Shown: positions 1-26,640 of the stretch, in pieces
Layout of the letters: every line of letters starts with the position of its first letter
How positions within the stretch are numbered: the first letter of the stretch is position 1
From: an uncultured virus (IMG/VR IMGVR_UViG_3300014656_001812)
Lineage: Duplodnaviria > Heunggongvirae > Uroviricota > Caudoviricetes
IMG/VR virus record: IMGVR_UViG_3300014656_001812
DNA length: 64,000 nucleotides
Direction: 5' to 3' (one strand)
Notes under the pieces: model-generated
The model's input: only the letters and a program-made list of their open reading frames with translations
What the model was told of the DNA's origin: nothing
Databases searched by the model: none
Program-made: the position numbers and the translations under genes

Positions 1-1224
1 AAGGTTTGCTGGATGAGCGACGATATAAGTTCGATGGCCACAGGATACAGTAATGAGAGTCGTCAGATATGTTTCGGATTACGAGATGCGGGCCATGAGG
101 TTGTGTTTCTTGGATGCCATGCTCCTCAGTTCTATGACCACGAATATGAAGGTATGAAGATACATTCAATTATGGGTACGGGTCACCGCGCGAGTGTGCA
201 ACAGATACTTGCTTCTGAAAAGCCCGATGTATTCATTACATTCTGGGACTTAAGGAAATTGATGCACATAATGCAAATGGATCGCTTCATTAAGTGTCCT
301 TGGTTAATGTACTATCTTTTAGACGATAAACCATTGCCCTGGGAATATCTCAGGATGTATCGCGTGCCTCAACTGACGATAGTGCCAGGCTCTAAATTCC
401 TCAAGGGTCTCTATGATGATGCTGGTATTGAAACGGCTGATGCTGTACAATTAGGAACAGATACTGATTTCTTTAAGCCATTAGACCCAGAAATACGTAG
501 GAAATTGAAGCGCGCGACGCTTGGCGGAGAGTGCGTCAATAAGACGGTCTTTGGTTTTGTTGGCAAGAATATGCCAAGGAAGAACATTCCTTTATTGATG
601 GAAGCCTTTTGTTCTCTTCCTAATGAAGTAAGGAAAGCTTCTATCTTGATGTTACATACACAAGCCCAACCTATTGAGATGGGACCACAAGGGCCCGTGA
701 TGATAGGCCATGACTTGCTGAACCTGAGGAAGTTTCAGTATAAATCTGACAACATTATTTTCTCTGGCCCCGATGGACGTATAGACTTTGATATGAATAG
801 CGTATATAATGTATTTGATTATGGCATTAGCGCGACCTTCCAAGAAGGATGGGGAAAAACTTCAACCGAATCGATGGCGGCGGGATTACCTATGATAATC
901 ACTGATGTATCCACAGCTTCTGAGATATGTGGGGAAGACTGGCCATTTATTGTGCCAGCAGGTGCTACTAACCTTTATCCTGGCGTCTCTATTAACGCCA
1001 GTTATCCTTCTGTTGAGACGATGGCACAAAAGATGGAAGAGGCTTTCTATATTCATAGAGATGAGCCCGCGCGCTATCAGGAACTATGCGAATATAGTAG
1101 ACAGAGGATATTAGACAGCATGACCCTACAGCATACGATAGATGGATGGTTGAAAGTATTAGATGATGCCAAGGACCGTGCAGGTTGGAAAGATGAGTAT
1201 ATGTTTGAGGAGGTTGTGATATAA
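1..1224 (+). CDS. GT4 (GT-B fold) glycosyltransferase, probably 5'-truncated by the window edge
   Basis: Frame is open from base 1 (KVCWMSDD...TGY). Motifs GFVGKNMPRKN and EGWGKTSTESMAAG match the GT4 E-x7-E signature. Confidence 0.9.
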   Translation, partial: KVCWMSDDISSMATGYSNESRQICFGLRDAGHEVVFLGCHAPQFYDHEYEGMKIHSIMGTGHRASVQQILASEKPDVFITFWDLRKLMHIMQMDRFIKCPWLMYYLLDDKPLPWEYLRMYRVPQLTIVPGSKFLKGLYDDAGIETADAVQLGTDTDFFKPLDPEIRRKLKRATLGGECVNKTVFGFVGKNMPRKNIPLLMEAFCSLPNEVRKASILMLHTQAQPIEMGPQGPVMIGHDLLNLRKFQYKSDNIIFSGPDGRIDFDMNSVYNVFDYGISATFQEGWGKTSTESMAAGLPMIITDVSTASEICGEDWPFIVPAGATNLYPGVSINASYPSVETMAQKMEEAFYIHRDEPARYQELCEYSRQRILDSMTLQHTIDGWLKVLDDAKDRAGWKDEYMFEEVVI

Positions 1225-1466
1225 TGGAAGAGAAAAAGAAATGGAGAATCACTTCCTTCTTTGGTCACGAACACGCTTCGTGTGGTGAATATCATCCTAA
1301 TAATGTTACTGAGACAGAGGAAATGACGCGAGACGAAATTGTTGAACACGTCAAGGAAATTCGATTACTTGGAATATGGACAGAAGAGGGAGATACCATT
1401 ATATCTAGGACGCCATATATAATAGTAGCCAAGGTTATAAAAGAGTGGAAGGAGGATAAAGATTGA
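1224..1466 (+). CDS. hypothetical protein (80 aa)
   Basis: TAATG-coupled to the upstream gene, with a GAGGAGG Shine-Dalgarno upstream. Confidence 0.7.
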   Translation: MEEKKKWRITSFFGHEHASCGEYHPNNVTETEEMTRDEIVEHVKEIRLLGIWTEEGDTIISRTPYIIVAKVIKEWKEDKD

Positions 1467-2569
1467 TAGTTCTAAGATTCCCCGCGTGGGGACAGACAGG
1501 ATATAGTCGCATTGGATGGGGTTTCGCTAAAGCGTTGTATGACATCGCGCCCGATGAACTTGTGATTCATCCCGTGATGTGGGCCACGATGCAGGATATC
1601 TATCTACCAGAAGATTATCAGCGTATCCTACAGCATTGTCGTCCCAAGACTGGTGGTCTCAATCCTTATGAGGATACCCTCGTATGTTTCCAATTGCCAT
1701 CTGATGTAGCAAAGGCGCCAGTCCTTCCTAATACCTTTGTCTATACTATGCTGGAGACTACGGGCATCGCGCCTCAATGGGCAGAGATAATCAACTCTAT
1801 CAAGGGTTGTATAGTCCCTTGTGCGGGGAACATACAATCATTTAAGAGTTGTGGTGCTAATAATGTTCAGTGTGTGCCACCCGCCGCCGATTATAGCATC
1901 TTCAATCCCGAACCTCGTGATGGCGCGCTTGTATTAGAGAATCTCAACAAGTTCAATGTCTTCTGTTCAGTTCAGGTTAGTCCGCGCAAGAACCTACCCG
2001 AACTCGTCTCTGCTTATTGTGATACCTTCGGCAAAGAGAAGGATGCGACGCTATTCGTCAAGGCTCACGGACAAGGTTATAGCACCGTAGAGATGTTTGA
2101 CATCGCTGATGAGGTCAAGCGCCTGAAGAAAGGTATGAAAGCCAATATTGTTCTTATTTATGATACTGTGAGTGATTATGAGTTGGCTGACATCTATAGA
2201 CAGATGGATATGTATATGACGGCGTCCTTCGGCGAGTCGTGGGACTATCCCCGCTTTGAGTCGTTGGTATGTGGTGTTCCTGCTATAGGCACGGCATTTA
2301 TAGGACCTGATATGTATCTCTCAGATGAAGCATTTAGAGTGAAGTATCAGTTGATGGACGTCGGCGCGCCACCTAACCCGATATATACAACGGGGCAGAT
2401 GTGGGCGCGACCAGAGCCTATTGACTTGCGTAGGAAGATGACGGCAGTATATAAGAATCCAAAGATGTATAAAGATAAAGCCTTAAAGTTGTCAGAGAAG
2501 ATTAGAGAGACCTATACCTGGGAGAAGAGCGCGAAGGCTCTCTTGGATATAGTGAAGAAGGAGAAATGA
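1463..2569 (+). CDS. GT4 glycosyltransferase
   Basis: TTG start after AGGAGG. Motifs TGY, YTMLET, RKNL and GESWDYPRFESLVCG (E-x7-E), with a C-terminal YTWE. Confidence 0.88.
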   Translation: MIVLRFPAWGQTGYSRIGWGFAKALYDIAPDELVIHPVMWATMQDIYLPEDYQRILQHCRPKTGGLNPYEDTLVCFQLPSDVAKAPVLPNTFVYTMLETTGIAPQWAEIINSIKGCIVPCAGNIQSFKSCGANNVQCVPPAADYSIFNPEPRDGALVLENLNKFNVFCSVQVSPRKNLPELVSAYCDTFGKEKDATLFVKAHGQGYSTVEMFDIADEVKRLKKGMKANIVLIYDTVSDYELADIYRQMDMYMTASFGESWDYPRFESLVCGVPAIGTAFIGPDMYLSDEAFRVKYQLMDVGAPPNPIYTTGQMWARPEPIDLRRKMTAVYKNPKMYKDKALKLSEKIRETYTWEKSAKALLDIVKKEK

Positions 2570-2570
2570 T

Positions 2571-2885
2571 ATGGAAGAGAAATTGATTGTATGGGAATGT
2601 GAATCAAGTACTGATGATATGAACATTCTCGTGCCAGGCTATCCAGAAGCATTTTTGGGAGTTGAGCCAGACCCATATAGTGATTACAAATTCATTATGC
2701 GTGTGCTTCTGAATACAGGAAATCCTGACCACTTGATTACCTTCAAGATTATATCCAATGAACCCTTGGTATTCGACCACGCTAGATTGACGCTTAAGGA
2801 ATCGTATCTTGGAACTATGATAAGAGAAGAAAGAAGGGTTTATATATTTGTTGATGGTATAAAACCTTGTAAGGAAGGAGTATAA
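2571..2885 (+). CDS. hypothetical protein
   Basis: Fills the operon gap, has an AAGGAG SD and is coupled to the next gene. Confidence 0.7.
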   Translation: MEEKLIVWECESSTDDMNILVPGYPEAFLGVEPDPYSDYKFIMRVLLNTGNPDHLITFKIISNEPLVFDHARLTLKESYLGTMIREERRVYIFVDGIKPCKEGV

Positions 2886-3628
2886 TGAAGGTTAGTGCAA
2901 TAATTCCAACTTGGAATCTCTCATCTAAACTGGACAAATGTCTTGAACATCTGTATAAGTATACAGATATGGACAAGGTTCAGATTATTATAGTAGACAA
3001 TGGCTCTAATGATGAGACGTTTCATATGGTGATGGACAAGTATTTTAGGCACGGCACAGATTCATACTTGAAGTTGGCAAGGAACCACGGCTTTGGTGAG
3101 GCTTCTAATATGGGAGCACGCGCCTCGGATGGCGAACTCTTGCTATTCCTCAACAATGATGTTTATGTCTCAGAAGAAGGGTGGCTTGATAATATGGCGT
3201 CAGAAATCTTAGCAGGGGCAACCATAGTAGGGCATAAGTTACTATATGCTAATGATACCATACAGCACGCGGGCATATTCTTCAATGTCCAAGGGATTCC
3301 TCTTCATTTATGGAGAGGCAAGCCTGCTGATTATGAGCCGACGCTTCATACCAAGAGACTGACAGCCGTCACGGGTGCTTGTATGATGATATGTTCAGAT
3401 GACTTCTCTCGTCTAGGGGGTTTTGATACTTCATATATCAATGGCTTCGAAGACATTGATCTGTGTTTCAAGTCTGTCTCAATGAGCGGTCGCATAAGTT
3501 GTTGTATGGATAGTAAGATATATCACGATGAGTGTAGCACACCATCTAGGAGAGACTTTGATGCGCGCAACGCACAGATATTTGTATCTAGATGGTTCGC
3601 GCCACAGGTTCGTGGAGGTAGTGAATGA
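2885..3628 (+). CDS. GT2 glycosyltransferase
   Basis: Motifs IIPTWN, VDNGSND, LFLNND, AVTGAC, GGFD and FEDIDLC. Confidence 0.93.
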   Translation: MKVSAIIPTWNLSSKLDKCLEHLYKYTDMDKVQIIIVDNGSNDETFHMVMDKYFRHGTDSYLKLARNHGFGEASNMGARASDGELLLFLNNDVYVSEEGWLDNMASEILAGATIVGHKLLYANDTIQHAGIFFNVQGIPLHLWRGKPADYEPTLHTKRLTAVTGACMMICSDDFSRLGGFDTSYINGFEDIDLCFKSVSMSGRISCCMDSKIYHDECSTPSRRDFDARNAQIFVSRWFAPQVRGGSE

Positions 3629-4359
3629 TAACTGGAATTATGTTGTTTGATGACAGCACTGATGTTGCCAATGTTCGTGAGACAGTTGGGTCTCTAACAA
3701 CGTCTTCTTCCAATGTTGAATGGAACATAGCGCTTATTGCTGGAGGGGAAGAAGCATTTGGTAAGGTTGAGGATATATTATGTCCACACTCTCTCGCCGA
3801 ATATCCAACAGATATGAATGTAGAGGAAGTCTATAATGAGATGATGGCTCGCTCGCTCGGCAGCGATGTCTTTTGTATATGTAAGCCAGACTTACATATG
3901 AATTCAGACAAATGGGATGATGAGGTTGAGTTTGTCCTGTCTAATAGTGGGCGCGTAGGTCTACTCGCTGCTAACACTGAACACGAAAGCCTATGTCAGA
4001 TAGTGCCAGGACTAGGCTATGATGCTAGATTCAGAATTGGAAATATACAGACACCTCAAGGCGTTGTATCTGTTGACCTCGCGCCAGGACCACTTCCAAT
4101 TCGTGGAGATATGTTGTTCATACCCCAGAGAACCTTTGAAATGCTAGGCTTCTTTTCTGGTGGATATCTTGACCCCGAAGGCTATGTCGTTGACTACTGC
4201 TGGCGCTTGGCTATGACAGGATTATTCAAGGGTTATCTTCCATCGTTGAATCTGGTGAGGCGCACGGAAGAGCCAGATATGTCATTATTGACGGAGTATA
4301 ATGCTGACTTCATAGAGAAGGTTCAGCGTCGGTATGAAGATTTCTATGTAGGAGAGTGA
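3625..4359 (+). CDS. divergent GT-A/GT2-like protein
   Basis: Remnants of GT2 motifs (YNEMM..S, CICKPD, FEMLGFF, VVDYCWRL) in a glycosyltransferase context. Confidence 0.55.
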   Translation: MITGIMLFDDSTDVANVRETVGSLTTSSSNVEWNIALIAGGEEAFGKVEDILCPHSLAEYPTDMNVEEVYNEMMARSLGSDVFCICKPDLHMNSDKWDDEVEFVLSNSGRVGLLAANTEHESLCQIVPGLGYDARFRIGNIQTPQGVVSVDLAPGPLPIRGDMLFIPQRTFEMLGFFSGGYLDPEGYVVDYCWRLAMTGLFKGYLPSLNLVRRTEEPDMSLLTEYNADFIEKVQRRYEDFYVGE

Positions 4360-4363
4360 TAGT

Positions 4364-4468
4364 ATGCGTCATCCGCGCAAGAAGCCTCCCGTTCGTAAAG
4401 AGATTCCTCGGCAGGATGAGCAGTGGAAGGCTGACAAGAACGGTAAGCGTGAAAAGAAGGAGAAGTAG
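4364..4468 (+). CDS. small basic protein, 34 aa (MRHPRKKPPVRKEIPRQDEQWKADKNGKREKKEK); not in the ORF track
   Basis: ATG at 4364 after AGGAG; TAG ends at 4468 and abuts the next ATG. It fills the only gap in the operon. Confidence 0.6.
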   Translation: MRHPRKKPPVRKEIPRQDEQWKADKNGKREKKEK

Positions 4469-5599
4469 ATGATACCTCTGTTCAAGGTCTTTATGTCTGA
4501 TAAAGTACCTGAAACTATCGGCAAAGTTTTGATGAGTGGATACATCGGCCAAGGTCCTAAGGTAGATGAATTCGAGGGCGTGCTTCGTGAATATTTCAAT
4601 CACGATTATATATTGACACTTAATAATGGCACTGCCGGACTACACTTAGCATTACATATGCTTCGCAATCCGTCTCCTGGTTCTTGGTGCGACCGACGAG
4701 TTGTGTTGTCTACTCCTCAAACCTGTCTTGCTACCAATACTCCTATCATACAGGAAGGATTCAAGATACGATGGGTGGATGTGAATCCCAACACAATGAA
4801 TATAGACCTCACTGATCTTGCCAGAAAGATAGATGAGAATGTAGCAGGGATAACATTTGTCCATTGGGGCGGCTCGCCTGTTGATTTGAATGGTGTCAAC
4901 GAGGTGCTAGACAATGCCGAAAAGATGTATGGGTATCGTCCGTTCATTATAGAGGACTGCGCTCACGCACTTGGAGCGACATATGACAACAAACTCATAG
5001 GCACTCACGGTAACTATTGTATGTTCAGTCTACAGGCTATCAAGCACATTACCGCCATAGATGGTGGGCTCTTGCTGACACCAAATATTGAATCATATTG
5101 CAGAGGTAAGTTGCTTCGTTGGTACGGCATAGATAGAGAGACGAACAGAAAGAATTTTCGTTGTGAATTAGATGTCGCCGAAGCGGGATTTAAATATCAT
5201 ATGAATGATGTTTGTGCTACCGTAGGTATGGAGAACTTCAAGAGTCTTGATGCTATCTTGAGAGCACAGCGAGGGAATGCCAACTATTATGATGAGAACC
5301 TCAAAGATATTCCAGGAGTTGAACTCATAGAGGTCCTGCCTGATGCTGAAAGCGCCTACTGGCTCTATACTATAAAGGTAGAAGACCGCGCTGGCTTTAT
5401 GGAGAGTATGAAGGCTCACGATATAATGGTTAGTCAGGTTCATCAGCGTAATGATATACATAGTTGTATGGATAGATATAGGTCTTTACTTCCGGGACTA
5501 GATGCTCTATGTAGGAAAAATGTGTGCATCCCGGTGGGATGGTGGATAGACGAAGAGAACAGAAAGTACATTGTTGAGACGATTAAGAGAGGATGGTGA
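4469..5599 (+). CDS. DegT/DnrJ/EryC1/StrS family PLP-dependent sugar aminotransferase
   Basis: Motifs GPKVDEFE, NNGTAGLHLAL, IIEDCAHALG, FSLQAIKHIT (PLP lysine) and GFKYHMND. Confidence 0.95.
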   Translation: MIPLFKVFMSDKVPETIGKVLMSGYIGQGPKVDEFEGVLREYFNHDYILTLNNGTAGLHLALHMLRNPSPGSWCDRRVVLSTPQTCLATNTPIIQEGFKIRWVDVNPNTMNIDLTDLARKIDENVAGITFVHWGGSPVDLNGVNEVLDNAEKMYGYRPFIIEDCAHALGATYDNKLIGTHGNYCMFSLQAIKHITAIDGGLLLTPNIESYCRGKLLRWYGIDRETNRKNFRCELDVAEAGFKYHMNDVCATVGMENFKSLDAILRAQRGNANYYDENLKDIPGVELIEVLPDAESAYWLYTIKVEDRAGFMESMKAHDIMVSQVHQRNDIHSCMDRYRSLLPGLDALCRKNVCIPVGWWIDEENRKYIVETIKRGW

Positions 5600-6198
5600 T
5601 GGAAGCAATAGCAGAAAATCCTTATGTAGGATGGAACGAGGACATAAAGAAATACCTAGGTCGATGTTCTGATGAACATGTTTATATAGGAAATCAGGTA
5701 ATCTTTACCTGTCCCCAGTATGTGGAGCTAGATCATCATGTTAGAATTGATCCATTTACCTTGGTTACCGCGCGCCTGCAGATTGGACATCATTCTCATG
5801 TTGGATCGCATGTCCTGATAGGAGGTGGCTCTGGAAGCAAGGTTAAGATGGGGAAATGGACAACACTAGTCTATGGATCCAAACTCCTATGCGGATCTGA
5901 AGACGCGACAGGAGAACATGGTCCTATAAATGCCCCTTGGGGGAATAATAAGGTCATTAGTGGGGACATTACTATAGAAGACTTTGGAGTTGTATTTAGT
6001 AACTGTCTTATAATGCCCGGCATCACAATACCTGAGGGATGTGTAATCGGTGCAGGAAGTACTATTACCAAGAAAATGTCTAGTCATCTGGAGCCCTGGA
6101 GTGTATACCTCGGCACGCCCCCAAGACTTCTTTATAGAAGGAACAAAGGAAAGATACTAGAACTAGCAGAAGATCCGAAATTCTTGAAATTTGGATAG
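5593..6198 (+). CDS. hexapeptide-repeat (left-handed beta-helix) acyl/acetyltransferase
   Basis: Hexapeptide repeats; ITIEDF..IMPGITIPEGCVIGAGS; PWSVYLGTPPR. Confidence 0.9.
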   Translation: MVMEAIAENPYVGWNEDIKKYLGRCSDEHVYIGNQVIFTCPQYVELDHHVRIDPFTLVTARLQIGHHSHVGSHVLIGGGSGSKVKMGKWTTLVYGSKLLCGSEDATGEHGPINAPWGNNKVISGDITIEDFGVVFSNCLIMPGITIPEGCVIGAGSTITKKMSSHLEPWSVYLGTPPRLLYRRNKGKILELAEDPKFLKFG

Positions 6199-6202
6199 AT
6201 AG

Positions 6203-6955
6203 ATGAAAATACTAATATTGTTGCTATACTATAATCGTCCTAATATGGTGAAGAACGCCCTATATTCTATAAAAGACTCTACCCATACAGACTGGGAACT
6301 AGCATTTATGGATGATGGTAGTGATAAGAGCGCATTGAACGTGGTAGCAGACGTTTTGGGTGAGGATCTTCGTAAAGTCAAGTATTATAATACTAAGGAT
6401 AGTGTAGAAGATAAGAGACAGCGGGAGAGTGGATTCTATGGAGGCAGCATCATTGGAAAGCATATGAATGATGCTATACAAGAATCAGATGCTGACATAT
6501 GTATCCTGTTATGCGATGATGACGCACTACTTCCAGACTATATGTCCAACTTGTCTAAGTATTTCACAGAACATCCTGAAGTGATGTATGCCTATTCTCA
6601 TATTGTTCCATATGATCCATTAAAGGAGAGCGCGCTGAGAATAGATCCTTCCAGACCATTGGTAGGAGAATTATTAGGCGCTGCTCAAGCATTCAATTCT
6701 AGGACAGAACCGACAAATCCTGTGTGTCACTTGGATGCTTCTCAGGTTGTATGGAGGAGAGAATGTAATCTCGCTGGGTGTTGGTTCGGTTTCCCTCGTA
6801 CAAAGAATCTTGATGAGAGTATATACCATGGTCTGTTCAATAAGTATGGGGTATGTGCTTTCACTGGATTCCGCGGACAGTTTAAAGGTATACACTTTAA
6901 CCAACTTTGTCGTCTCGACGCTAACAGTTATGCTATAATTGACAAGGAGGAATGA
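6203..6955 (+). CDS. GT2 glycosyltransferase
   Basis: Motifs YYNRP, DWELAFMDDGSD and LCDDD. Confidence 0.88.
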   Translation: MKILILLLYYNRPNMVKNALYSIKDSTHTDWELAFMDDGSDKSALNVVADVLGEDLRKVKYYNTKDSVEDKRQRESGFYGGSIIGKHMNDAIQESDADICILLCDDDALLPDYMSNLSKYFTEHPEVMYAYSHIVPYDPLKESALRIDPSRPLVGELLGAAQAFNSRTEPTNPVCHLDASQVVWRRECNLAGCWFGFPRTKNLDESIYHGLFNKYGVCAFTGFRGQFKGIHFNQLCRLDANSYAIIDKEE

Positions 6956-7830
6956 TGAATTTATCCCACGCTGAAAGAAATATCTTGTCTGAATTGATGG
7001 CGTCTGTTAGTGAGAAGTGTGGCACTACGTATTCGGAAGTGTCTACTGGTTCGCCTAATGAGATAAGCCTCAAGGGGCCTTTGTCCTTCTCTGGCAATCA
7101 ACGTATCTGTATTCCTGGCATCGCTATTGATGGCGAACCGAAGAATATGATTGGTATATATTCCTCGTGTGAGGACTTTGTCTTGGTGAACTCAGTGGCA
7201 CGCACGGCGAAAGCACATTATGAAGAATTAGAGAAAACCAGAACATATTTTATCATTTGTGGCAGTGAGAAGTACATTGATGGAGGAATGAAAACATTCA
7301 ATGGTATTGTTGGAGATGTAGTTGTCCCTTGTTTGGTCAACAATGTCTCTACAATGACGGAAGCCGCTCAGACTTGTGGTACTATGATTGGCGACGGCGC
7401 GTTGGCGAGATGCTTGATGTTATCAAGTCGTCCCATAGTATATTGGTATGGCTCTGGATATTCATACGTTGTCCCTGGCAAAGGAAAGCCCAGTATGGCA
7501 TTGTCTCAGAATTACATTGCGCCCAAGAATACTGGTCAGAATATTCTTGCTGATCCTATATGGATGGCTATTAAGATGAAAGTAGTCGCCACCACCGAAT
7601 TAGAACTTAGAACCAAAGTGAATGACGAAGCATATTGGGCGGGCATCGAACGTGACATATTGACAAGAATGATAATGATATGTGAGGAGAATGGTACTAC
7701 ATATCATGAATATAAGACTCTCGTTACTGGACTTGGGCGTGGCATAATAGAAGCAGATGAAAATATCTCGCTCGAGGCGATCATAGAGAACATATGTCAA
7801 CGAATATCGATAGGATCTGCGGGCTACTAG
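6952..7830 (+). CDS. hypothetical protein
   Basis: Long ORF with an AAGGAGG SD; no recognised motif. Confidence 0.7.
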   Translation: MMNLSHAERNILSELMASVSEKCGTTYSEVSTGSPNEISLKGPLSFSGNQRICIPGIAIDGEPKNMIGIYSSCEDFVLVNSVARTAKAHYEELEKTRTYFIICGSEKYIDGGMKTFNGIVGDVVVPCLVNNVSTMTEAAQTCGTMIGDGALARCLMLSSRPIVYWYGSGYSYVVPGKGKPSMALSQNYIAPKNTGQNILADPIWMAIKMKVVATTELELRTKVNDEAYWAGIERDILTRMIMICEENGTTYHEYKTLVTGLGRGIIEADENISLEAIIENICQRISIGSAGY

Positions 7831-13827: not shown

Positions 13828-14490
13828 TTACGCATCAATACCCTTACAAATATATTTCATATTATATCTACATTTAGTGTCTTTAGCAGGACACCCAAGC
13901 AATGTCTCAGCTAATTTAATTCCCCCAGGAATACGTTCAGTGTCGTGCGTAAATAAGATATATTTATCATCTAACAGACTAATGACTGACAGTAGATCCT
14001 TGCGAAATGCTTTCTCAGTATGAAGCCCATCTATAAAAACATAGTCAAGCTTCTCCTTGGAGAAGTCAAAAATCGAACCGAGGGAGGCCAATGTATCTGT
14101 AGGGCTCCAGCCTATGAAAGGAAACACAGTATCAAGATTATAAAATTTAATCAACTGATGTATAGATTTCCATCCATAAGAATCTGGATTTCCTATTTTT
14201 CCCCATTCTTCGTCAAGATAACAATCGAGTGTAACAAGTTTCCCTCGTGTCTGCTTCATAGCACGTCCAGTTACCATGGCTGAGATACCAGCTCCGGTGG
14301 CTATTTCATAGCCTCTAGTAAGATTATGAGAAACTATCAAATCATAGATAAAATTAGCTTCATCTTCACTGATAGATGAAGGAAAGTGATGATCAGCCAT
14401 TCGAATTATATGCTCTTCTTCCTTTCTCTCATATGTCACTTCCCAGTTCTGGGACTGCATTATAAGTTCATCGAAATCTATCATTTTCAT
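13828..14490 (-). CDS. class I SAM-dependent methyltransferase (Methyltransf_24-like)
   Basis: Motifs YEIATGAGIS, TLD, DYVFIDGLH and HDT. Confidence 0.88.
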   Translation of the reverse strand: MKMIDFDELIMQSQNWEVTYERKEEEHIIRMADHHFPSSISEDEANFIYDLIVSHNLTRGYEIATGAGISAMVTGRAMKQTRGKLVTLDCYLDEEWGKIGNPDSYGWKSIHQLIKFYNLDTVFPFIGWSPTDTLASLGSIFDFSKEKLDYVFIDGLHTEKAFRKDLLSVISLLDDKYILFTHDTERIPGGIKLAETLLGCPAKDTKCRYNMKYICKGIDA

Positions 14491-14519: not shown

Positions 14520-14548
14520 ATTATACCATAATTAAGAAGGATAGTCAA
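14520..14548 (-). promoter_or_regulatory. sigma70-type promoter with extended -10
   Basis: The minus strand reads TTGACT-N17-TATAAT with TG at -15/-14, upstream of the GAGGA SD and the ATG at 14490. Confidence 0.85.
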
Positions 14549-14551
14549 GAC

Positions 14552-15589
14552 CTAGCTATTAGACAAGACAAGAATCACCGCATCAGGGTATCCATCAGGG
14601 GCACCAAGCATTACATCATCACAGGCATTATATGGAGGAAAAATAGGCATCTGTCCCATTTGCCCACCTCCAAATACTTCAGGAGGACTAAAATGGACAG
14701 TAAATCTATACCAAGATGTATCGTAATATCCACTAGTATATGTAGATTTCTCGTCGTACCCATTAGTATTGAAAATCAGATGGCCGTCAACATTGGTATT
14801 CCTGATTATATCTTCTCCTTTAGTCCTGTTGGAACCATAGGCGTAAAGAATGTAGGTAGTTATCCTCGAGAGCCTAAACGATCTATCCCACACATCAAAT
14901 TCTCCTGTTCGTAACTTATAACCGGAAAGCATTGGTCCAAATGATCTATATCCAAAGTTGCCGGGCCAGTGGACGATAGTACTCCCATTAGAAGGGTCAT
15001 CAGAATATATGATAAAGGGAGAATCGGCTTTCCTATCAGGAATCGCGCGCCCGCTCCAAGTCCATTTCAAATAACCAGAACCTAAAGCACCATCAATATA
15101 TCCAGTAGACCAGAGACTCGTCTTTTTGCCATATTCAGACCAGAAGTAGCGAGGATCACCAAGACCATTGCCCATTGTCATTCCTGACCAACCAAATCTA
15201 ACATCTCCAGTTCCAGGTTCTCCAATCCATCCCGTCCATTCTAAAGCATCCCTGCCACTAGTAAATGGATTATGCGGATAAGACTTAATATATCCATAGG
15301 CTATGAGGGGATCAGCAACATCAGGATTCAGACCTCCCCCTGTCCTGAACAATCCTCGTGCATAGTTAGCATCGTCGCCACCAAGGATATAACGCGGATA
15401 CTTTCCAGAATGATCTACAGCATACCTCTCAAGAGAGATCTGAATTGAATGTAGATTCGACTTTACCTCAGCTTCCTTCGCCTTTTCCTTGGCACGCATG
15501 AATTTAGGCAAGGCGATTGTTATTAAAATGGCAATAATAGTAACAACAACTAATAATTCAATGAGTGTAAATCCACGTTGGCGACTCAT
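14552..15589 (-). CDS. type IV pilin / T2SS pseudopilin-like protein (paralog B)
   Basis: Likely start MSRQRG|FTLIELLVVVTIIAILITIALP (class III signal, E+5) after an AAAGGGG SD. The ORF track starts at 15616. Confidence 0.88.
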   Translation of the reverse strand: MSRQRGFTLIELLVVVTIIAILITIALPKFMRAKEKAKEAEVKSNLHSIQISLERYAVDHSGKYPRYILGGDDANYARGLFRTGGGLNPDVADPLIAYGYIKSYPHNPFTSGRDALEWTGWIGEPGTGDVRFGWSGMTMGNGLGDPRYFWSEYGKKTSLWSTGYIDGALGSGYLKWTWSGRAIPDRKADSPFIIYSDDPSNGSTIVHWPGNFGYRSFGPMLSGYKLRTGEFDVWDRSFRLSRITTYILYAYGSNRTKGEDIIRNTNVDGHLIFNTNGYDEKSTYTSGYYDTSWYRFTVHFSPPEVFGGGQMGQMPIFPPYNACDDVMLGAPDGYPDAVILVLSNS

Positions 15590-15616
15590 AAGCCATTCCC
15601 CCTTTGAACCTGTCAA

Positions 15617-16891
15617 CTACCCTCGATTCAATTTAGTGGAAGCCGCAGCATAATCAAGTAGCTTCCTTTTGTTCTTCATTAGCTCTTCTCCACTGATAGT
15701 ATCAAGCTTTATCAACGGAGGAAAAAGAGACTCCCCCTCGGAGGTATTAATAAAGAAGTTATACTTCTCAAGATCCTTATCTATTATAGAAACCCCATAC
15801 TTATCAGGATATTTCCATATATCGCTACCAGGAAGAGGCACAAAGGTCTTCAGAGCAAGACTCGTATAGGGAACCGAATCGAGAAATTCTATATCCTTAT
15901 CTGTCGTCTCAGGCGTAGTACCAGGAAGCCCCATCATCATTAATACCCTCGTCTTGAGGCCCGTGCTATAAGCATTGACAAGAGCATCCCTACTATCATT
16001 AACCTTTATCTTCTTATCAAGAAGGTTAAGTACATCTTGATCGCCAGACTCTACACCAAAAGAGACCTCAATACATCCACTATCTCTCATCATCTGAAAT
16101 AATTCTACATCATTTGGAAGAACCCTGATACTGGCTCTCCAATAGATAGGCCAGTCTAATTTATTAATTTCCTCACACAATTCCTGAAGCCACCCTCTCT
16201 TAGTGGTAATAGAATCATCAACAAAGCGGAATCTGTTTACTCCATATCTCTTTATCTCTATAATTTCTTGGATAACATTACCAGCAGACCTTTCTCTAAG
16301 AGAGCGGTTCCATATCCCACTAGAAGCACAAAAGGCACAGTTATATGGACATCCTCGGCTCGCAGCAATAAGCGTAGATTCGCCATCGTATTGAGAATCT
16401 AAAAATATATTCCCACCCTGTTTCTTTAATAGTTCCCTAGCGGGAAAAGATATTGTATCTAAGTCATCTATAAACTTATCAGCCTTAAAATATCTTTCTT
16501 TAGATCCACCTAAGATCTCCTCTATCACATTAGATATAATAGATTCTGCTTCGTTCTGGACAATAGTATGGACGTTGTAATTATAGAATTCAGGAGAGAG
16601 CGTCGCACCCGCGCCACCAACAACAATATGAAACTGTTCACAAAGAACATCCGCCATCTTATTAACGGTAGGAATATCTAAAGACGTCCCAGTAAAGCAA
16701 AGAATTCCTTGACTATACTCCTCTTTAAGATACCTGCAAGCATCAAATATCTTATAGCAAGAGAGATCCTCGAATGACACATCATTAGTCTTCTTAAGAG
16801 CAGACGCTACATACATAAGCCCTAGTTGAAGCATAATACCAGGACGTACGAGATACGGTTGAGGAGGATTAATAAGTACTATAGGCATCAC
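15617..16891 (-). CDS. B12-binding radical SAM protein
   Basis: N-terminal cobalamin-binding-like domain (LINPP, LGLMYVAS, VVGG); SRGCPYNCAFC; FVDD; GVESG. Confidence 0.92.
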   Translation of the reverse strand: MMPIVLINPPQPYLVRPGIMLQLGLMYVASALKKTNDVSFEDLSCYKIFDACRYLKEEYSQGILCFTGTSLDIPTVNKMADVLCEQFHIVVGGAGATLSPEFYNYNVHTIVQNEAESIISNVIEEILGGSKERYFKADKFIDDLDTISFPARELLKKQGGNIFLDSQYDGESTLIAASRGCPYNCAFCASSGIWNRSLRERSAGNVIQEIIEIKRYGVNRFRFVDDSITTKRGWLQELCEEINKLDWPIYWRASIRVLPNDVELFQMMRDSGCIEVSFGVESGDQDVLNLLDKKIKVNDSRDALVNAYSTGLKTRVLMMMGLPGTTPETTDKDIEFLDSVPYTSLALKTFVPLPGSDIWKYPDKYGVSIIDKDLEKYNFFINTSEGESLFPPLIKLDTISGEELMKNKRKLLDYAAASTKLNRG

Positions 16892-17649
16892 AATGGAGCA
16901 CCGTATGTTTCTACATCAGAACCATATATATATTTAGATCTAGGAACTAGTTTATTGTATCTCTCAGTCAGTTCTTCCTCAGACAAAAAGTGATATGTGC
17001 CCCATCCTTTCTTAATTCTGTTTTGTTTATCCGTTTCGGAAATCTTATTCTTGATCTGGAGCTTACGGGAGAGAACTTCTGGCCAAGGAGACCAAGAATA
17101 TACACAAATATAAGAGCCATCTAGCACATCACAGGCAAACCCAGTTTTATGTCTTCCTATGTCGTATTGTCCATCTTCATAACAATGTACGGCCCTCTTG
17201 TGAGAAGCCTTATTATTATCAATGAATCCGTGGCACTTTTGCTCCAGCAGAGAGCCAGTTGAATCAAATGTACTGGGAGAGATATCAACCATAGTATAGG
17301 TTTTCTCTTGTATAAACGCTTTATTTGTTGCCTCATCTACTAATTGAGAAGTATCCATAAATAGAAATTCAGTAGTATTCAGAGCTACTTTCCAGCCGGA
17401 AATCTCCTTCTCCTTCTTCATTATTTCAGCAGATGCTGATTCTACCATAAACCACTCATTCTCAGATTCTACAATCTCCCAAGTAGGACAAATCTCTTTG
17501 ATTATTTCCACACTTCTATCAGTAGAAGCATAGTTAATCATTATCCCGTGATCGGCTATGGTCTTATGATGAGCCAACCAATGGGGCAATAGCAGTTCTT
17601 CATTGTAGAAATGGGATACGACAGTAAGCTTAGACATTTTATACCTCAA
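16888..17649 (-). CDS. GT-A fold glycosyltransferase (Glyco_tranf_2_4-like)
   Basis: Motifs FYNEELLLPHWLAHH, STDRSVEI, LNTTEFL and GRH. Confidence 0.78.
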   Translation of the reverse strand: MRYKMSKLTVVSHFYNEELLLPHWLAHHKTIADHGIMINYASTDRSVEIIKEICPTWEIVESENEWFMVESASAEIMKKEKEISGWKVALNTTEFLFMDTSQLVDEATNKAFIQEKTYTMVDISPSTFDSTGSLLEQKCHGFIDNNKASHKRAVHCYEDGQYDIGRHKTGFACDVLDGSYICVYSWSPWPEVLSRKLQIKNKISETDKQNRIKKGWGTYHFLSEEELTERYNKLVPRSKYIYGSDVETYGAPL

Positions 17650-17655
17650 TAAAGA

Positions 17656-18846
17656 TTATTGATTCGCTACCCAGTTAGCAGAGAGAGGATTGAATCCACC
17701 TCCATCTCCTATGAGACACAGGACTATTCCATCGGGCACACCATCTGGCGCCCCATACATATAGGGCTCTCCTCCGCTAACAGTATTCTCATATGGATAA
17801 CTAGGCTGAGGATTTAGTCCTGGCTTATTCTCGGGCATACCCCCATATGTATAGAACCAACCACCAAAAGTTAAGGGAAGTCCCCATCCAGTCCCCTTGT
17901 TCTGATTGCCGAAGAGACCCTCTGCCCCACCGTAGATTCCTACGGGGCATCCATTGATGACCGCATTCTCATTCCAAGGAGGTGGCAACTTGAAGTATAC
18001 CTGCGCGCCGTTCGTATATGTATGTTCTAATCTTATGACATCATATCCATCAGACCTAAATGACCCATAGGCTCCCATAATATAGGTAGCAGGACGAGAC
18101 CTGAAGGCGGTATCACCAGGATACCCCCACCCATGCCCATCAGGTCTCTCCATGAATTTCCAACCTGCTCTATAATAGAAATTTCCAGGCCAGTATGTCT
18201 TTAACCATCCCTTACCATTAGGATTCCTTCTACCTCCAAACATATAATGGACACCAACAGGATCAGAATCCCAACTAGGAAAGCCAAGGAAAGAAGCATC
18301 AGGAAGCGTCAAGGATGTATCAACCAAGGTGCGATTAGGATTTCGCGGGCCATTGCTATCTTTAAAAAAGGCAGGATCAGTGAGACCCATACCCATTAGG
18401 TTCCCTTTGTATCCAAACCGAGGGTCACCAAGGCCAGTAACAGAATCAAATGTTCCTTCAATGATCACCCTTCCCTCATCAACAAAAGGATTAGAAGGAT
18501 AACTATTAATATAGGCATAATGAATTAATGGATCAACAACAAAGTCGGGAAAGAATGTATTGCCAAATTTATTTAGGTATTGCGAAGAAGAAGGGTGCTC
18601 ATCTTTAATCGAGTGCCATACGTCCCACCCCTGAGAATCTCCACCAATGAGAAACGAGGGATAGTATCCCCTATCCACAGCATACCTTTCCACCGCGATC
18701 TGGATGGTGTGCAGATTGGCCTTGGCTTCGACTTCCTTGGCTTTGTCCTTCGCCTTGATGTAGTTAGGGAGAGCAATAGCCGCGAGAATGCCAATTATTG
18801 TAATCGTAACAAGCAATTCTATAAGCGTAAATCCCCTTTGTCGCAT
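17656..18846 (-). CDS. type IV pilin / T2SS pseudopilin-like protein (paralog A)
   Basis: MRQRG|FTLIELLVTITIIGILAAIALP, with ATG at 18846 after an AGGTGA SD. It shares many motifs with paralog B. Confidence 0.9.
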   Translation of the reverse strand: MRQRGFTLIELLVTITIIGILAAIALPNYIKAKDKAKEVEAKANLHTIQIAVERYAVDRGYYPSFLIGGDSQGWDVWHSIKDEHPSSSQYLNKFGNTFFPDFVVDPLIHYAYINSYPSNPFVDEGRVIIEGTFDSVTGLGDPRFGYKGNLMGMGLTDPAFFKDSNGPRNPNRTLVDTSLTLPDASFLGFPSWDSDPVGVHYMFGGRRNPNGKGWLKTYWPGNFYYRAGWKFMERPDGHGWGYPGDTAFRSRPATYIMGAYGSFRSDGYDVIRLEHTYTNGAQVYFKLPPPWNENAVINGCPVGIYGGAEGLFGNQNKGTGWGLPLTFGGWFYTYGGMPENKPGLNPQPSYPYENTVSGGEPYMYGAPDGVPDGIVLCLIGDGGGFNPLSANWVANQ

Positions 18847-18857
18847 CGTAATCACCT

Positions 18858-18892
18858 AAACTAAAAGACCCCCTTCAGAGGCACGGGAGTCT
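18858..18892 (-). terminator. putative intrinsic terminator directly upstream of the pilin A SD
   Basis: Minus strand AGACTCCC-N11-GGGGGTCT (8-bp stem with one G-U pair) followed by TTTAGTTT. Confidence 0.6.
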
Positions 18893-18948: not shown

Positions 18949-20100
18949 CTAAGGAATACACCTCCTCGGCGCATCAAGAGCAACTATATCATCGCTAGAA
19001 TCGTCAATATCAGTAGTATTAGCCCACGTCAAAGGATTAGAATAATATTGGTATTCAATATTAGGTAAGTAATAGGAATTGATATCTCCCCTTGGTACAG
19101 AGAAGTCCTTCTTGATGACAAATATCCTGAGATTATTATGTTGGTCTATTGTAATCTGCGGACAACAGAAGCCCATTGGAGGTAGACTTAACATAGAAAG
19201 TATTTCTATATCTAGAGGTTCCTCCCATCCATTCCTTGTGCGCCTTCTATATACAAGGGTATAAGCAGCAGCTACCGAATCATAATTGACTATGACAACA
19301 TGGAATGTATCATCATTTGGATTATGTGTGACGGCATAATCGTGTGTCAATGTATCAGAAGCAATATAAACCACTTCTTGCTGTGGCCAAGCAGTACTAG
19401 AATTACCATCCCAAATAGACATATATAATATATTAGAATCGGTGAAGAAAGCAAATACATTATTATAATTATCACATATAATTTCTGGGCTCGCCCCCGC
19501 CGCCTTAATAGTATTCTGCCAATCAATAGGTAGCGTCGGCTCAGCAGAGGGCCCAAAATAGGTTAGTCCAGCAGTGACAGTATCAACACCGGCAATATGT
19601 ATAGTACCAGCTAAGGTTTTATCCAAGTCAAAGCTATAACCAGTATCGGCGATTCTAGCACCTGGAGATTGTACAACACCTAAAGCCGGCGTACCAGTTT
19701 CGGTACGAATACTAAATATATCAAAGAAATTAGACGAATCTTTCTTTGCTACGGCCCAAACATAGTTCTGTCTTACCTTTACATCAACGGAATCGTAATC
19801 AACAGACGTATAATCATCTAGCACAGACCAGGCACCACCTGCTCTCCAACCCGTATCGGCATTCGTCCATAATTCAAGATCTAAAGAACCACTCTCTACT
19901 ATCATATATCCCCAAGTACCAGTTGGTAGCCAGCACCACCCTGTACGCTGAGGAAGAGTCTGAGCAGAAAAAAAGTCCATGCCTACAGATGTACGCGACC
20001 AGGTACTATTTATATCGTCATAGAACGCGACACGCAGTTCATATGCACTACCAAGATTTACATAAAACGCTAAGGGCCAAATATCTCCTCTATCGCTCAT
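18949..20100 (-). CDS. putative beta-rich (propeller-like) virion/receptor-binding protein
   Basis: Repeated beta-hairpin blades (GTIHIA, NNVFAFF, DTFHVV, NNLRIF); lies at the end of the structural operon. Confidence 0.55.
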   Translation of the reverse strand: MSDRGDIWPLAFYVNLGSAYELRVAFYDDINSTWSRTSVGMDFFSAQTLPQRTGWCWLPTGTWGYMIVESGSLDLELWTNADTGWRAGGAWSVLDDYTSVDYDSVDVKVRQNYVWAVAKKDSSNFFDIFSIRTETGTPALGVVQSPGARIADTGYSFDLDKTLAGTIHIAGVDTVTAGLTYFGPSAEPTLPIDWQNTIKAAGASPEIICDNYNNVFAFFTDSNILYMSIWDGNSSTAWPQQEVVYIASDTLTHDYAVTHNPNDDTFHVVIVNYDSVAAAYTLVYRRRTRNGWEEPLDIEILSMLSLPPMGFCCPQITIDQHNNLRIFVIKKDFSVPRGDINSYYLPNIEYQYYSNPLTWANTTDIDDSSDDIVALDAPRRCIP

Positions 20101-20108
20101 ACATCACC

Positions 20109-21542
20109 TTAAACATACCATACAGTAACCATAACATCGGCGTCATAATCATTATAGATATCAACCGTCAGATTGCCACTAGACTTATATGTATCAATTA
20201 TTATTAACTTCCCAGCGACAGGACCTTCTTTGTCATCCAATTTCCAGACTCTATCAGAGTCAAGATACCTATATTGGACATCTATCCAATGATTTATGGC
20301 AGCATCGCCTATTGCGCCGCAATCAATGCTCGTAGTCCTCAGTATCTGACAAGTAGTCTCCAAAGAACTAGATAAGCCTCCCCCTCCTCCACTGAAACCA
20401 GATATTCCAGAGAATCCTGACGCTCCGACGGGACCAGAATATCCACTAATTCCTGACCATCCACTATAACCAGAAATGCCCGAATACCCACTAAATCCTG
20501 AATCTCCTTTGGTACCGGGTGCACCACCGGCTCCACTATAGCCAGAAAAACCACTGTATCCCGAGAATCCGCTATAGCCAGAAGTACCAATACCAGTATC
20601 GCCAGAATAACCACTATAGCCTGATGTGCCAGGGGGACCAGTATCACCAATCTCTCCTTGAACCCCACTATATCCAGAGTACCCTGACAATCCCGAATAT
20701 CCGCTCTCTGCCGCCGCGCCGTCTTGGCCACTATATCCAGAAAAGCCAGAATAACCTGAGCGGCCAGAATATCCACTAAGACCTTGAAGCCCCTGAGCGC
20801 CAGGACTACCAGAATATCCGCTGTACCCGGAAAGACCACTATAGCCAGAAGTTCCTGCTCCACTAATGCCCGAATATCCTGACACGCCGGGCGGAGCCCA
20901 GCCAAAACCAATGAAATCACCATTGGTAAATGAATTATTGCTTGCTTGGTAATCTACTTCGTATTTATGATATCCTACAAGAGCTCCTTCTCCGGTAATG
21001 ACATAATGAGCAAATGTAGTCTCGTCTCTATCATCAAATATACGGACGTGACCTTCTATTATATCATCAAGGACTCCCTGTACGTTCGCGCCATTCCTAT
21101 CGGTGTCGCTAATATAAATTTCAGTGACGGCGGCCATTGATACATTATTGAACTGTATCGTACCAGTAGCAGGTGGCTCTGAAACAGCAGAATTATAATT
21201 ATATAGTAATGTCCACCCGCCAGTGATCCCTCTGTATCCGCTATAACCAGAATATCCACTATAACCAGAGTATCCAGAAATACCAGACGCACCAGTGGGA
21301 CCACTAAAACCGCTAAAGCCAGAATAGCCAGATTCTCCGCCACCGCTGCCTCCAGAACCAGCAAGCCCCGCAGGACCACGTGCGCCACTGTATCCCGAGA
21401 AACCCCGTGGACCCTGAGGTCCTTTACGCCCCTTAGGACCACCATAGCCACTATAACCAGAAGGGCCCAATGGCCCCACTACTGGTTCGTCAAACTCCCG
21501 AGGAGTATCGACTACATCTTCTTCAAATAAAGGTAAAGGCAT
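20109..21542 (-). CDS. collagen-like tail/capsid fibre with Gly-x-Ser triplets
   Basis: Two G-x-y blocks dominated by SGY/SGF/SGI, flanking a globular PPATGTIQFNN domain. Confidence 0.85.
   Translation of the reverse strand: MPLPLFEEDVVDTPREFDEPVVGPLGPSGYSGYGGPKGRKGPQGPRGFSGYSGARGPAGLAGSGGSGGGESGYSGFSGFSGPTGASGISGYSGYSGYSGYSGYRGITGGWTLLYNYNSAVSEPPATGTIQFNNVSMAAVTEIYISDTDRNGANVQGVLDDIIEGHVRIFDDRDETTFAHYVITGEGALVGYHKYEVDYQASNNSFTNGDFIGFGWAPPGVSGYSGISGAGTSGYSGLSGYSGYSGSPGAQGLQGLSGYSGRSGYSGFSGYSGQDGAAAESGYSGLSGYSGYSGVQGEIGDTGPPGTSGYSGYSGDTGIGTSGYSGFSGYSGFSGYSGAGGAPGTKGDSGFSGYSGISGYSGWSGISGYSGPVGASGFSGISGFSGGGGGLSSSLETTCQILRTTSIDCGAIGDAAINHWIDVQYRYLDSDRVWKLDDKEGPVAGKLIIIDTYKSSGNLTVDIYNDYDADVMVTVWYV
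20380..20885 (-). repeat. 9-nt periodic coding repeat (SGY/SGF), block 2
   Basis: Degenerate units such as gaatatcca/ctatagcca/ctataacca, in frame within the CDS. Boundaries approximate. Confidence 0.8.
21225..21470 (-). repeat. 9-nt periodic coding repeat (SGY/collagen), block 1
   Basis: Encodes SGYSGYSGYSGYSGY and GPKGRKGPQGPRG. Boundaries approximate. Confidence 0.8.
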
Positions 21543-25005: not shown

Positions 25006-26234
25006 ACTTTCGGCTCCTTATGATAGACTACAAATGGACGAATGCCATAGTCTGAGGGCAGCATCGCTGTACTCGTACTGCTAGGAACACCGATATACGA
25101 TCCGTTCTCTGGTGATCCTACTATTTTGAGATAGATATAACCAAATGAGGAAACAGGATTATCCTGAACAAGCGGATCTATATTAATTTTAATGCGCTCG
25201 TAATCATCACCAGAATCCAAAGTAATTCTACGGCTCACGATATGTTTCCATATGAATGTGGCATATGTATCCACGAATTCGGTAGGGGGAAGAGAAGGAT
25301 AAATATAAGTAGCATAATATATATTAACATATCTTGTCTTGTTAGTCAAAGGTCTCAAATAGAGATACAGATAACCATAGCGATATCCACTAGGAGGAAC
25401 TTCCACATAACAAATCCTATTATCCCCAAATAGACTAGGATTTTCCCAAGGCAAAATGGGCATCGTATTGAGACGATAGAGATAGTCACCAGATATATCG
25501 AATGACGCAATCTGCTCATTGTAATGCGAGTAAGAAGAAGCCACATCCTCAATGTGATCCTGTTGAGCAACTTTTCCTATCAAGGAAGACATATTGGTAT
25601 GTTTCCTTGTTGTGCTAGAAATATGATCAGACAAAGAATTAAGTCTAAATGTCCTGATGGTATCTCCATAGAAGAAATTATAGTCCATAAGAGTGGAACT
25701 TTCTACACCACTAACAACGGCAATGATGTCATCCCACGGATTATATGAATACGATATACTAGATTCTGTACTACTATTGCCCGCCGCGTCAAAAGATCTA
25801 AAGCCTATAGAATTGACACCGCTATAAAGCTCTACACTACCGTAAAATATACCATATTTATCGGTATCAATCGTCGTTAGTCCATTGGTAGAAGATACTG
25901 TTACCGCGCCACTCTCGTTGATAACTCCTTGAAAGAACAAAGTACCAGTAGAAGTACTAGAATACCAGAGAGAAGGCGTAGATGGACAGATGAAATCTCC
26001 AAATATTGTAGTCGTCGAGACATCCCCAACATCATTGGAGAGATATATATAGTTTAGTCCGTCATATACTACAACATTAGTGGTCCAGTCACCCTCAACG
26101 ATATATGCAACATGGTCAGCAGACCCATACACAGGATGGGACACTGTTATAAAGGCAACGCTACCATCAGAACGCCCCTTTAGGAGCACTGATTGAGACG
26201 AGACAGGGGCATATGGATATGTAAGCCTAATCAT
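25002..26234 (-). CDS. Ig-like domain virion protein
   Basis: Ig-like signatures GDWTTNV..YDGLN and VELYSGVNSI..SFDAAGNSS. Confidence 0.7.
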   Translation of the reverse strand: MIRLTYPYAPVSSQSVLLKGRSDGSVAFITVSHPVYGSADHVAYIVEGDWTTNVVVYDGLNYIYLSNDVGDVSTTTIFGDFICPSTPSLWYSSTSTGTLFFQGVINESGAVTVSSTNGLTTIDTDKYGIFYGSVELYSGVNSIGFRSFDAAGNSSTESSISYSYNPWDDIIAVVSGVESSTLMDYNFFYGDTIRTFRLNSLSDHISSTTRKHTNMSSLIGKVAQQDHIEDVASSYSHYNEQIASFDISGDYLYRLNTMPILPWENPSLFGDNRICYVEVPPSGYRYGYLYLYLRPLTNKTRYVNIYYATYIYPSLPPTEFVDTYATFIWKHIVSRRITLDSGDDYERIKINIDPLVQDNPVSSFGYIYLKIVGSPENGSYIGVPSSTSTAMLPSDYGIRPFVVYHKEPKV

Positions 26235-26640
26235 TATATCCTCTCTTCTTCCAGCGAGACTTCATTTTGGCATATATAGAGGGAGATTGTTCTCTCACCT
26301 TTTGAATAAGGAGTTTGTGACATAAGACTTCCTCGTGCCACACCACAATCAGAGTGATTTTCTTCTCTTTACACTGACGCGCCTTCTCCTTGTCTCTGTT
26401 CTTCATCTTCTCAAATCCAGAGATACTCTTATGAAAGAACTTTACATAATTAGTATGCTGTTGTCCGTGATGCTCGAATGCTAACTTTAGACTAGGGATA
26501 TAAAAATCCAGTTGTTTAGGATAACCCTTGGGTGTTAATAAGAAAGAGTGAAAACCGTTCTGTACCCAAGTAAGTTCCCCGAACAGGTCCCTAAGCAATG
26601 AAAAAAGCTTTGTCTCCCTTGTAAATTGTGATTTACGCAT
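26227..26640 (-). CDS. Vsr/DUF559-like endonuclease (possible homing endonuclease)
   Basis: QLDFYIPSLKLAFEHHGQQH..FFHK...RDKEK..C...ITLIVV; strongly basic. Confidence 0.78.
   Translation of the reverse strand: MRKSQFTRETKLFSLLRDLFGELTWVQNGFHSFLLTPKGYPKQLDFYIPSLKLAFEHHGQQHTNYVKFFHKSISGFEKMKNRDKEKARQCKEKKITLIVVWHEEVLCHKLLIQKVREQSPSIYAKMKSRWKKRGYND

Follow-up and report, generated by a model that had tools for sequence, protein, structure and literature searches.

A putative host-derived pair of large type IV pilin-like proteins in tailed phages from groundwater

The DNA analyzed here, referred to as the window, is a stretch of 64,000 nucleotides from an uncultured member of the Caudoviricetes (IMG/VR record IMGVR_UViG_3300014656_001812). 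It contains two genes, named pilA and pilB, that encode prepilin-like proteins and enclose genes for a glycosyltransferase-like protein (GT) and a radical S-adenosylmethionine (SAM) enzyme (rSAM). Alignments and phylogeny show this pilin pair to be host-derived and kept in several phages, with a full class III signal, the invariant residues of its family and a host-like stalk. We give about even chances to the proposal that the pair remodels the surface filaments of infected cells via the machinery of the host. As judged from related loci, the position of GT and rSAM between the pilins is most simply read as peculiar to the window phage, the two enzymes not forming a dedicated pilin-tailoring set. 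The genes of the cassette are the following (a slash marks the predicted cleavage site):

17656..18855, minus strand: pilA-type prepilin-like protein, 399 aa from a GTG start, with the leader MITMRQRG/FTLIE, a long alpha-1 helix and a large head rich in Gly and aromatic residues.
16888..17649, minus strand: GT-A-fold glycosyltransferase-like protein, 253 aa, of a family very common among viral contigs.
15617..16891, minus strand: radical-SAM enzyme, putatively of class B (B12-binding type), 424 aa, with the motif CPYNCAFC (Radical_SAM E 5.6e-20).
14552..15616, minus strand: pilB-type prepilin-like protein, 354 aa from a TTG start; an ATG at M10 would give the leader MSRQRG/FTLIE (N_methyl E 5.1e-10).
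13828..14490, minus strand: class I SAM methyltransferase, Methyltransf_24 (PF13578, E 1.5e-9).

An earlier note on this DNA, made from its letters, had described two paralogous pilin-like proteins with class III leaders in the order pilin, GT, radical SAM, pilin, followed by a methyltransferase. The open reading frames (ORFs) reproduce this order; the end coordinate given in the note, 18846, is the ATG at M4 of pilA, the GTG start lying at 18855. The description of the proteins holds as well. Both score above the cut-offs of Pfam N_methyl (E 8.7e-10 for pilA) and TIGR02532, and both carry RQRG/FTLIELLV, that is, a short basic leader ending in Gly, F at +1, E at +5 and a hydrophobic stretch; a search of all six reading frames of the window gave these 2 prepilin motifs only. 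A full-length alignment of the two proteins (35% identity, BLASTP E 2e-43) displays every motif listed in the note.

A profile of the family matches 23 pilin and pseudopilin sequences of the PDB, including Geobacter PilA-N, Myxococcus PilA and PulG, over residues 4-68 only (E 1e-15 to 1e-11, best 1.2e-15). AlphaFold2, given an alignment of 126 rows, produced a confident model (predicted local distance difference test 85.4, predicted template modelling score 0.86), which places the alpha-1 helix at residues 11-62 and as a whole resembles a pilin fold, weakly but consistently; beyond the helix, Foldseek gave no match at E<=1e-3. We read the model as a probable pilin scaffold with large insertions. 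Like GspG and the type IVa major pilins (Myxococcus PilA, Geobacter PilA-N), the two proteins have the leader G/FTLIE, G at mature position 14, P at 22, an alpha-1 helix of 50-60 residues and the motif ...ERY..D..YP. Unlike these, they match in the N-terminal ~65 residues only, the ~330-residue head having neither a PDB sequence match nor a Pfam family. The scores for the GspG equivalog TIGR01710 (53.9 for pilA and 46.3 for pilB) lie below the cut-off of 88.85, and those for the Myxococcus-type PilA NF041775 (57.6 and 46.2) below that of 400. DUF1559/SBP_bac_10 (PF07596) is an expanded "PulG-like" pseudopilin family of Planctomycetota and relatives; we rejected membership in it, PF07596 being absent at E<=0.01 for both pilins and the structure of a DUF1559 cluster of the Atlas aligning with a template modelling score of 0.37-0.42. 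The closest Atlas cluster consists of N_methyl proteins, some labeled Uroviricota, and is a lead only. PADLOC returned nothing meaningful for either pilin, and tblastn of both against 50,697 GenBank phage records gave no match.

Scans of viral contigs with single proteins found nothing, and those based on alignments recovered one full-length relative, L001 (= L088), an IMG/VR record of 27.6 kb that CheckV estimates to be 20% complete. The order A-type pilin, peptidase, B-type pilin is found in L001/L088, L091 and L092/L136. The first pilins of L001, L091 and L092/L136 are 49-55% identical to pilA, and the second pilins of L001, L091 and L092 are 48-54% identical to pilB. The gene between them encodes a Trypsin_2 peptidase of 242-277 aa (L001:1555-2388, L091:6286-7050, L092:1505-2233 and L136:453-1181), of which the window holds no homologue. 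Conversely, GT and rSAM have no homologues in L001/L088, L091 or L092/L136 (tblastn, E<=1e-4), and the whole 27.6-kb record of L001 gives no match to Radical_SAM. The peptidase displays conserved AKHI, DW and G-SGSP stretches, has a lipobox-like N terminus (LLASCA) in most contigs and matches weakly, in PADLOC, the protease domains of defense systems.

We placed these proteins in a tree of 91 rows, 16 of them from phages (12 A and 4 B), with SH-aLRT supports. With a support of 100, the 12 rows of phage A group together as sister to 57 bacterial rows. The 4 phage B rows, including pilB, form a clade with a support of 99 whose sister group (99) comprises 6 bacterial B rows; the B genes of two bacterial contigs, L101 and L125, belong to this sister group. 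A single clade of the 16 phage rows, a grouping named after the tree had been seen, is rejected (delta lnL 49.4, p-AU 0.0056). The tree and this rejection thus place the A/B split before the phage copies, the phage pair mirroring a bacterial one. Adjacent A-type and B-type genes, in this order, do occur in bacteria, in L101 (7327-8514 and 8540-9805) and in L125 (3092-4231 and 4309-5454), and this pairing, conserved in hosts and phages, hints at a heteromeric filament. The stalk (residues 8-61) has a mean identity of 86% to 109 bacterial rows, as against 39% for the head, which lends plausibility to the use of host machinery put forward in the note. In addition, 41 alignment columns are invariant in 126 of 126 rows, phage rows included.

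The search for relatives of the pilins gave at least 1717 proteins at E<=1e-3, mostly of 370-410 aa; the named ones are prepilin-type or type II secretion system (T2SS) proteins from metagenome-assembled genomes labeled simply "bacterium". By homology, the pilins are thus assigned to a large uncharacterized family of ~380-aa GspG/PilA-like proteins of uncultured bacteria. A search with a head-only alignment (A2) gave 52 metagenome loci, and the neighbors were scanned in 20 of them, where the family occurs as single genes or tandem arrays of 1-7 copies in chromosomal surroundings, among housekeeping genes such as the S16, RimM, TrmD, L19, LepB, RNase HII, DnaK/GrpE and tRNA synthetase genes. 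The array in L125 (3092-11623) consists of seven genes, A- and B-type alternating, and L121 (7-6752) has six B-side genes; the arrays of L101 and L125 share the upstream genes lepB, rnhB, UPF0102 and one for a TPR protein. A Ser/Thr kinase and a TMEM260-like O-mannosyltransferase adjoin family members in L101 (12575-15990) and L135 (1951-5208), and three GT4 genes lie directly upstream of family members in L108 (6147-9657, = L109); such neighbors hint that the pilin-like proteins of the hosts are possible glycoproteins. The pilin searches that the note had proposed for the donor led to a family in uncultured bacteria and did not fix the lineage. The TrmD of L101 has a few relatives at 72-82% identity, the nearest named one (72%) being labeled "Candidatus Dadabacteria", and beyond these the identity falls to 53%. 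A scan of genome contigs gave mostly generic N-terminal pilin matches (residues 1 to ~170) that did not pinpoint a host, and five of those genomes, searched whole, likewise gave N-terminal matches only.

That the pilin genes do nothing for the phage, being either passively carried host DNA or the product of a chimeric assembly, is largely refuted, and we give this view almost no credence. Its one argument is composition: the GC content of pilA (0.458) is above that of the GT, rSAM and methyltransferase genes (0.37-0.40) and resembles that of the bacterial pilin relatives (0.43-0.52), while pilB (0.428) is near the window mean of 0.419. Against this, at least four phage types keep the pair at a divergence that leaves ~50% identity, in well-supported clades made up of phage rows only. 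Moreover, the same junctions recur in contigs from groundwater metagenomes, namely four runs of three studies, two of them possible sources. An identical contig of 2346 nt from the third study covers 15456-17801 and therewith the pilB/rSAM, rSAM/GT and GT/pilA junctions, and other contigs span the Methyltransf_24/pilB and GT/pilA junctions. Because this independent contig bridges the cassette, a chimeric assembly, which the note had listed as a possible refutation, is unlikely.

The features of virus-encoded pilins are found here, namely a phage context, bacterial sister clades and no machinery genes in the window: searches of 49 window ORFs against Pfam and 48 against PHROGs gave no match to prepilin peptidase, T2SS or type IV pilus ATPase, platform or secretin families, in agreement with the note, which had reported no peptidase, ATPase or platform gene. 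The statement of the note that no comparable system is known has been overtaken. According to Sztanko et al. (Cell Rep 2026, PMC12952977), P-FimU (prophage FimU) and the PilA-like proteins of Pseudomonas and Xylella phages are host-related, come without assembly genes of their own, and are proposed or shown to become part of the host pilus and to prevent adsorption; non-temperate phages have PilA-like genes as well. According to Xiang et al. (Cell Rep 2025, PMC12426801), the archaeal pleolipovirus SNJ2 encodes PilA1 and PilA2 in tandem, which are near the chromosomal pilins of the host and hijack its PilB/PilC; these genes were captured from hosts, a duplication in the lineage of the virus having given rise to the pair. 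The window pilins resemble the Pseudomonas and Xylella proteins in being type IV pilin homologues that a phage encodes and that no assembly genes accompany within the window, and those of SNJ2 in being two virus-encoded pilins close to pilins of host chromosomes. They differ from the former, which are minor or major pilins of ordinary size encoded by single genes, in being two subunits of ~40 kDa that form an A/B pair with a variable middle gene; moreover, they come from phages of uncultured groundwater bacteria and belong to an uncharacterized family. SNJ2, for its part, is a temperate membrane virus of archaea, while here the A/B split predates the capture and the phages are tailed phages of bacteria with no integrase in the window. 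A search of the literature on metagenomic phage pseudopilins found nothing relevant. Since virus-encoded pilins are in print, the concept is already known; what is new is the ~40-kDa uncharacterized family, highly expanded in uncultured bacteria, the heterotypic pair with its variable middle gene, and the groundwater phages. The remodeling of host pili by phage-encoded pilins in phage-phage competition was shown only recently, and the present case carries the idea to large tailed phages of uncultured groundwater bacteria and to this family.

In the mechanism that we propose, both pilins would insert into the host inner membrane via the class III signal and the alpha-1 helix and be cleaved at G/F by the host prepilin peptidase. 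The type IV pilus or pseudopilus machinery of the host would then polymerize the phage subunits beside its many own paralogues, or in their place, thereby altering the head domains exposed on the surface filament. The likeliest pay-off would be receptor masking, superinfection exclusion or phage-phage competition, as for P-FimU; alternatively, the pair could serve filament-mediated adhesion, as for SNJ2. GT and rSAM would fill a variable slot between the pilin genes that is taken, in the related phages, by the trypsin-like peptidase. Several points weigh against this mechanism. In the 20 bacterial loci, no pilus ATPase, platform, secretin or prepilin peptidase gene adjoins the family genes, and filament formation by the family therefore remains an inference. 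The pilins are found on contigs as long as 116,150 bp, such that the 64 kb of the window cover a part of a contig of 116 kb or more. GT4 or TMEM260-like glycosyltransferase genes adjoin some bacterial members, and the tight packing of the cassette (from pilA to pilB, a 6-bp gap, a 4-bp overlap and a 0-bp gap, with 61 bp from pilB to the methyltransferase) would equally fit a common function of pilins, GT and rSAM. Two phage-selected subunits and, in related phages, a partner peptidase offer a handle on the role of an abundant bacterial family.

The close match between the phage stalk and that of the host would also suit poison or decoy subunits that shut the filament down, either by blocking the host pilus or T2SS or by titrating the prepilin peptidase, and PMC12952977 considers that truncated PilA-like proteins of lytic Pseudomonas phages possibly inhibit assembly. 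We regard this as unlikely for the window pair, in which both proteins have full-size heads and keep all 41 family-invariant positions; the heads are 48-55% identical across phages, a conservation that a mere blocker would not need.

A still slimmer chance is given to a role in the virion or infection apparatus, for example as tail-fibre accessories that recognize the host filament by head-head contacts. In the window, the pair comes after tail-fibre-like genes on the same strand, and in L001 and L091 the large terminase gene follows the pair at a distance of ~5 kb downstream. A virion protein, however, would have no use for a cleavable class III signal, for E5 or for a membrane-spanning stalk with 86% identity to host subunits; the genes flanking the pair on its other side belong to DNA metabolism, and a structure search of BFVD gave no match at E<=1e-3, whether to phage tail proteins or to others. 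The genes upstream of pilA are:

18949..21542, minus strand: a collagen-repeat tail-fibre-like protein of 477 aa (Collagen E 4.1e-28; tail-fibre PHROGs E 6.9e-37) and an unknown protein of 383 aa.

The collagen-repeat protein (20109-21542, minus strand) is rich in Ser, Gly and Tyr (SGYSG), and its repeats yield long spurious ORFs in the other frames and on the opposite strand. A terminator-like hairpin (18868-18882, minus strand) lies between the 383-aa gene and pilA, and a near-consensus promoter-like site (14520-14548, minus strand; 11/12, with TG) between pilB and the methyltransferase gene. Scans of the cassette region gave 40 sigma-70 promoter-like sites versus 36.1 expected, no more than chance would give, and 15 terminator-like sites versus 8.0 +/- 4.0 expected, and neither scan provided usable operon boundaries.

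The labels that the note had given to the two enzymes stand in part. Radical_SAM (PF04055) is well above its cut-off (72.6 versus 29.5 bits), with CPYNCAFC as the CxxxCxxC motif, and the predicted structure of GT has a clear GT-A fold. By sequence, GT is marginal, its Glyco_tranf_2_4 match of 27.5 bits being exactly the cut-off, and the B12-binding match of rSAM (residues 16-122, 24.2 bits) stays under the cut-off of 32.1, whereas viral rSAM relatives at 27-35% identity score 44-60 bits. An alignment of 50 members of the GT family has invariant N91, T93 and E94 (in LNTTEF) as well as D44, and no invariant DxD; in our reading, LNTTEF would take the usual place of DxD, and GT may be a non-canonical GT-A enzyme. 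The rSAM reaches no NCBIfam equivalog, its best partial matches being PhpK, ApyD, BchE and AprD4, and falls into a broad subfamily, with 951 representatives counted at E<=1e-30 (the nearest 45% identical).

The arrangement could reflect a tailoring unit, in which GT, rSAM and the downstream methyltransferase glycosylate or methylate the pilins before their entry into the host pilus or T2SS. This was the proposal of the note, and we now consider it improbable. The operon-like packing, with genes overlapping or abutting, speaks for it, as do the glycosyltransferase genes near bacterial family members (the three GT4 in L108/L109, the O-mannosyltransferase in L101 and L135). However, the note had itself stated that the tailoring role would be unlinked by related phages keeping the enzymes without pilins, and the pilins and the enzymes do part in both directions. 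In one direction, three other phage types pair the same pilins with the Trypsin_2 peptidase, without GT or rSAM. In the other, relatives of GT were found in 297 viral stretches, and in the 80 loci kept for counting (856 kb) a prepilin motif is present in 0/80, an rSAM homologue in 0/80, such that the two enzyme families never occur together elsewhere, and a DegT homologue in 24/80. Relatives of rSAM occur in 11 viral contigs (23-35% identical), with a prepilin motif in 0/11. In 7 of the 8 loci examined, they lie among genes for GT1/GT2/GT9, epimerase/dehydratase, UDP-glucose dehydrogenase, DegT, Methyltransf_24, FkbM and sulfotransferase, that is, in nucleotide-sugar clusters; L140, for instance, has the order GT1, GT2, epimerase, rSAM, DegT, Methyltransf_24, with FkbM two genes on. 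The closest viral relative of rSAM (L139, 35%) is located among RecA-like and SbcC-like genes. In L143 (6548-8605), a phage protein of 685 aa combines a B12-rSAM relative with a class I methyltransferase domain; its gene stands between GT9 and GT2, just downstream of a Mu-type portal gene.

Since their relatives sit in sugar clusters without prepilins, we assign GT, rSAM and, with probability, Methyltransf_24 to a sugar-modification toolkit that is widespread among phages. The window has a larger set of such genes elsewhere:

13..7830, plus strand: glycan-modification block with two GT4-like and two GT2 genes, a DegT/EryC1 aminotransferase (E 1e-64) and a hexapeptide acyltransferase (Pfam, PHROG).

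In other phages, relatives of these block genes are found together with those of rSAM and GT, and the resemblance to phage glycan gene sets (GT2/GT4, DegT, epimerase, methyltransferases) extends to the relatives of GT, rSAM and Methyltransf_24, which are embedded in them. Unlike in those sets, the three genes of the cassette stand apart from the main block, two of them wedged between the pilins. Gene adjacency in phage genomes is, as a caution, not proof of a tailoring pathway.

A wider view would take the A-type gene, the middle gene and the B-type gene as a unit of filament conversion, which combines a heteromeric tip or fibre, made of the two phage subunits on infected cells, with a maturation enzyme specific to each module (a secreted trypsin-like peptidase in the related phages, GT-A plus B12-rSAM here). 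We consider this doubtful, a shade more so than the tailoring unit; if true, it would be the first phage-encoded pathway that tailors pilins post-translationally.

The window as a whole is tailed-phage DNA, as the note had held in describing a phage cassette. The Pfam and PHROG scans matched baseplate wedge/Baseplate_J, the collagen-repeat tail fibre, an M15 endolysin and a primase, the latter gene coming after the 13..7830 block, as well as a deoxynucleoside monophosphate kinase, RuvC-like and Cas4-like nucleases and a sigma-like factor. The ORFs covered by these scans gave no match to integrase families, and there are no tRNA genes within the window. A protein of 2212 aa (48476-55114, minus strand) strongly matches phrog_20474 (E 2.6e-96) and has an endolysin-like part as well as a CHAP domain at its C terminus; it is probably a giant structural protein or a lysin associated with the tail. 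An HNH/homing-endonuclease-like gene (26227-26640, minus strand) lies within the block of large structural genes.

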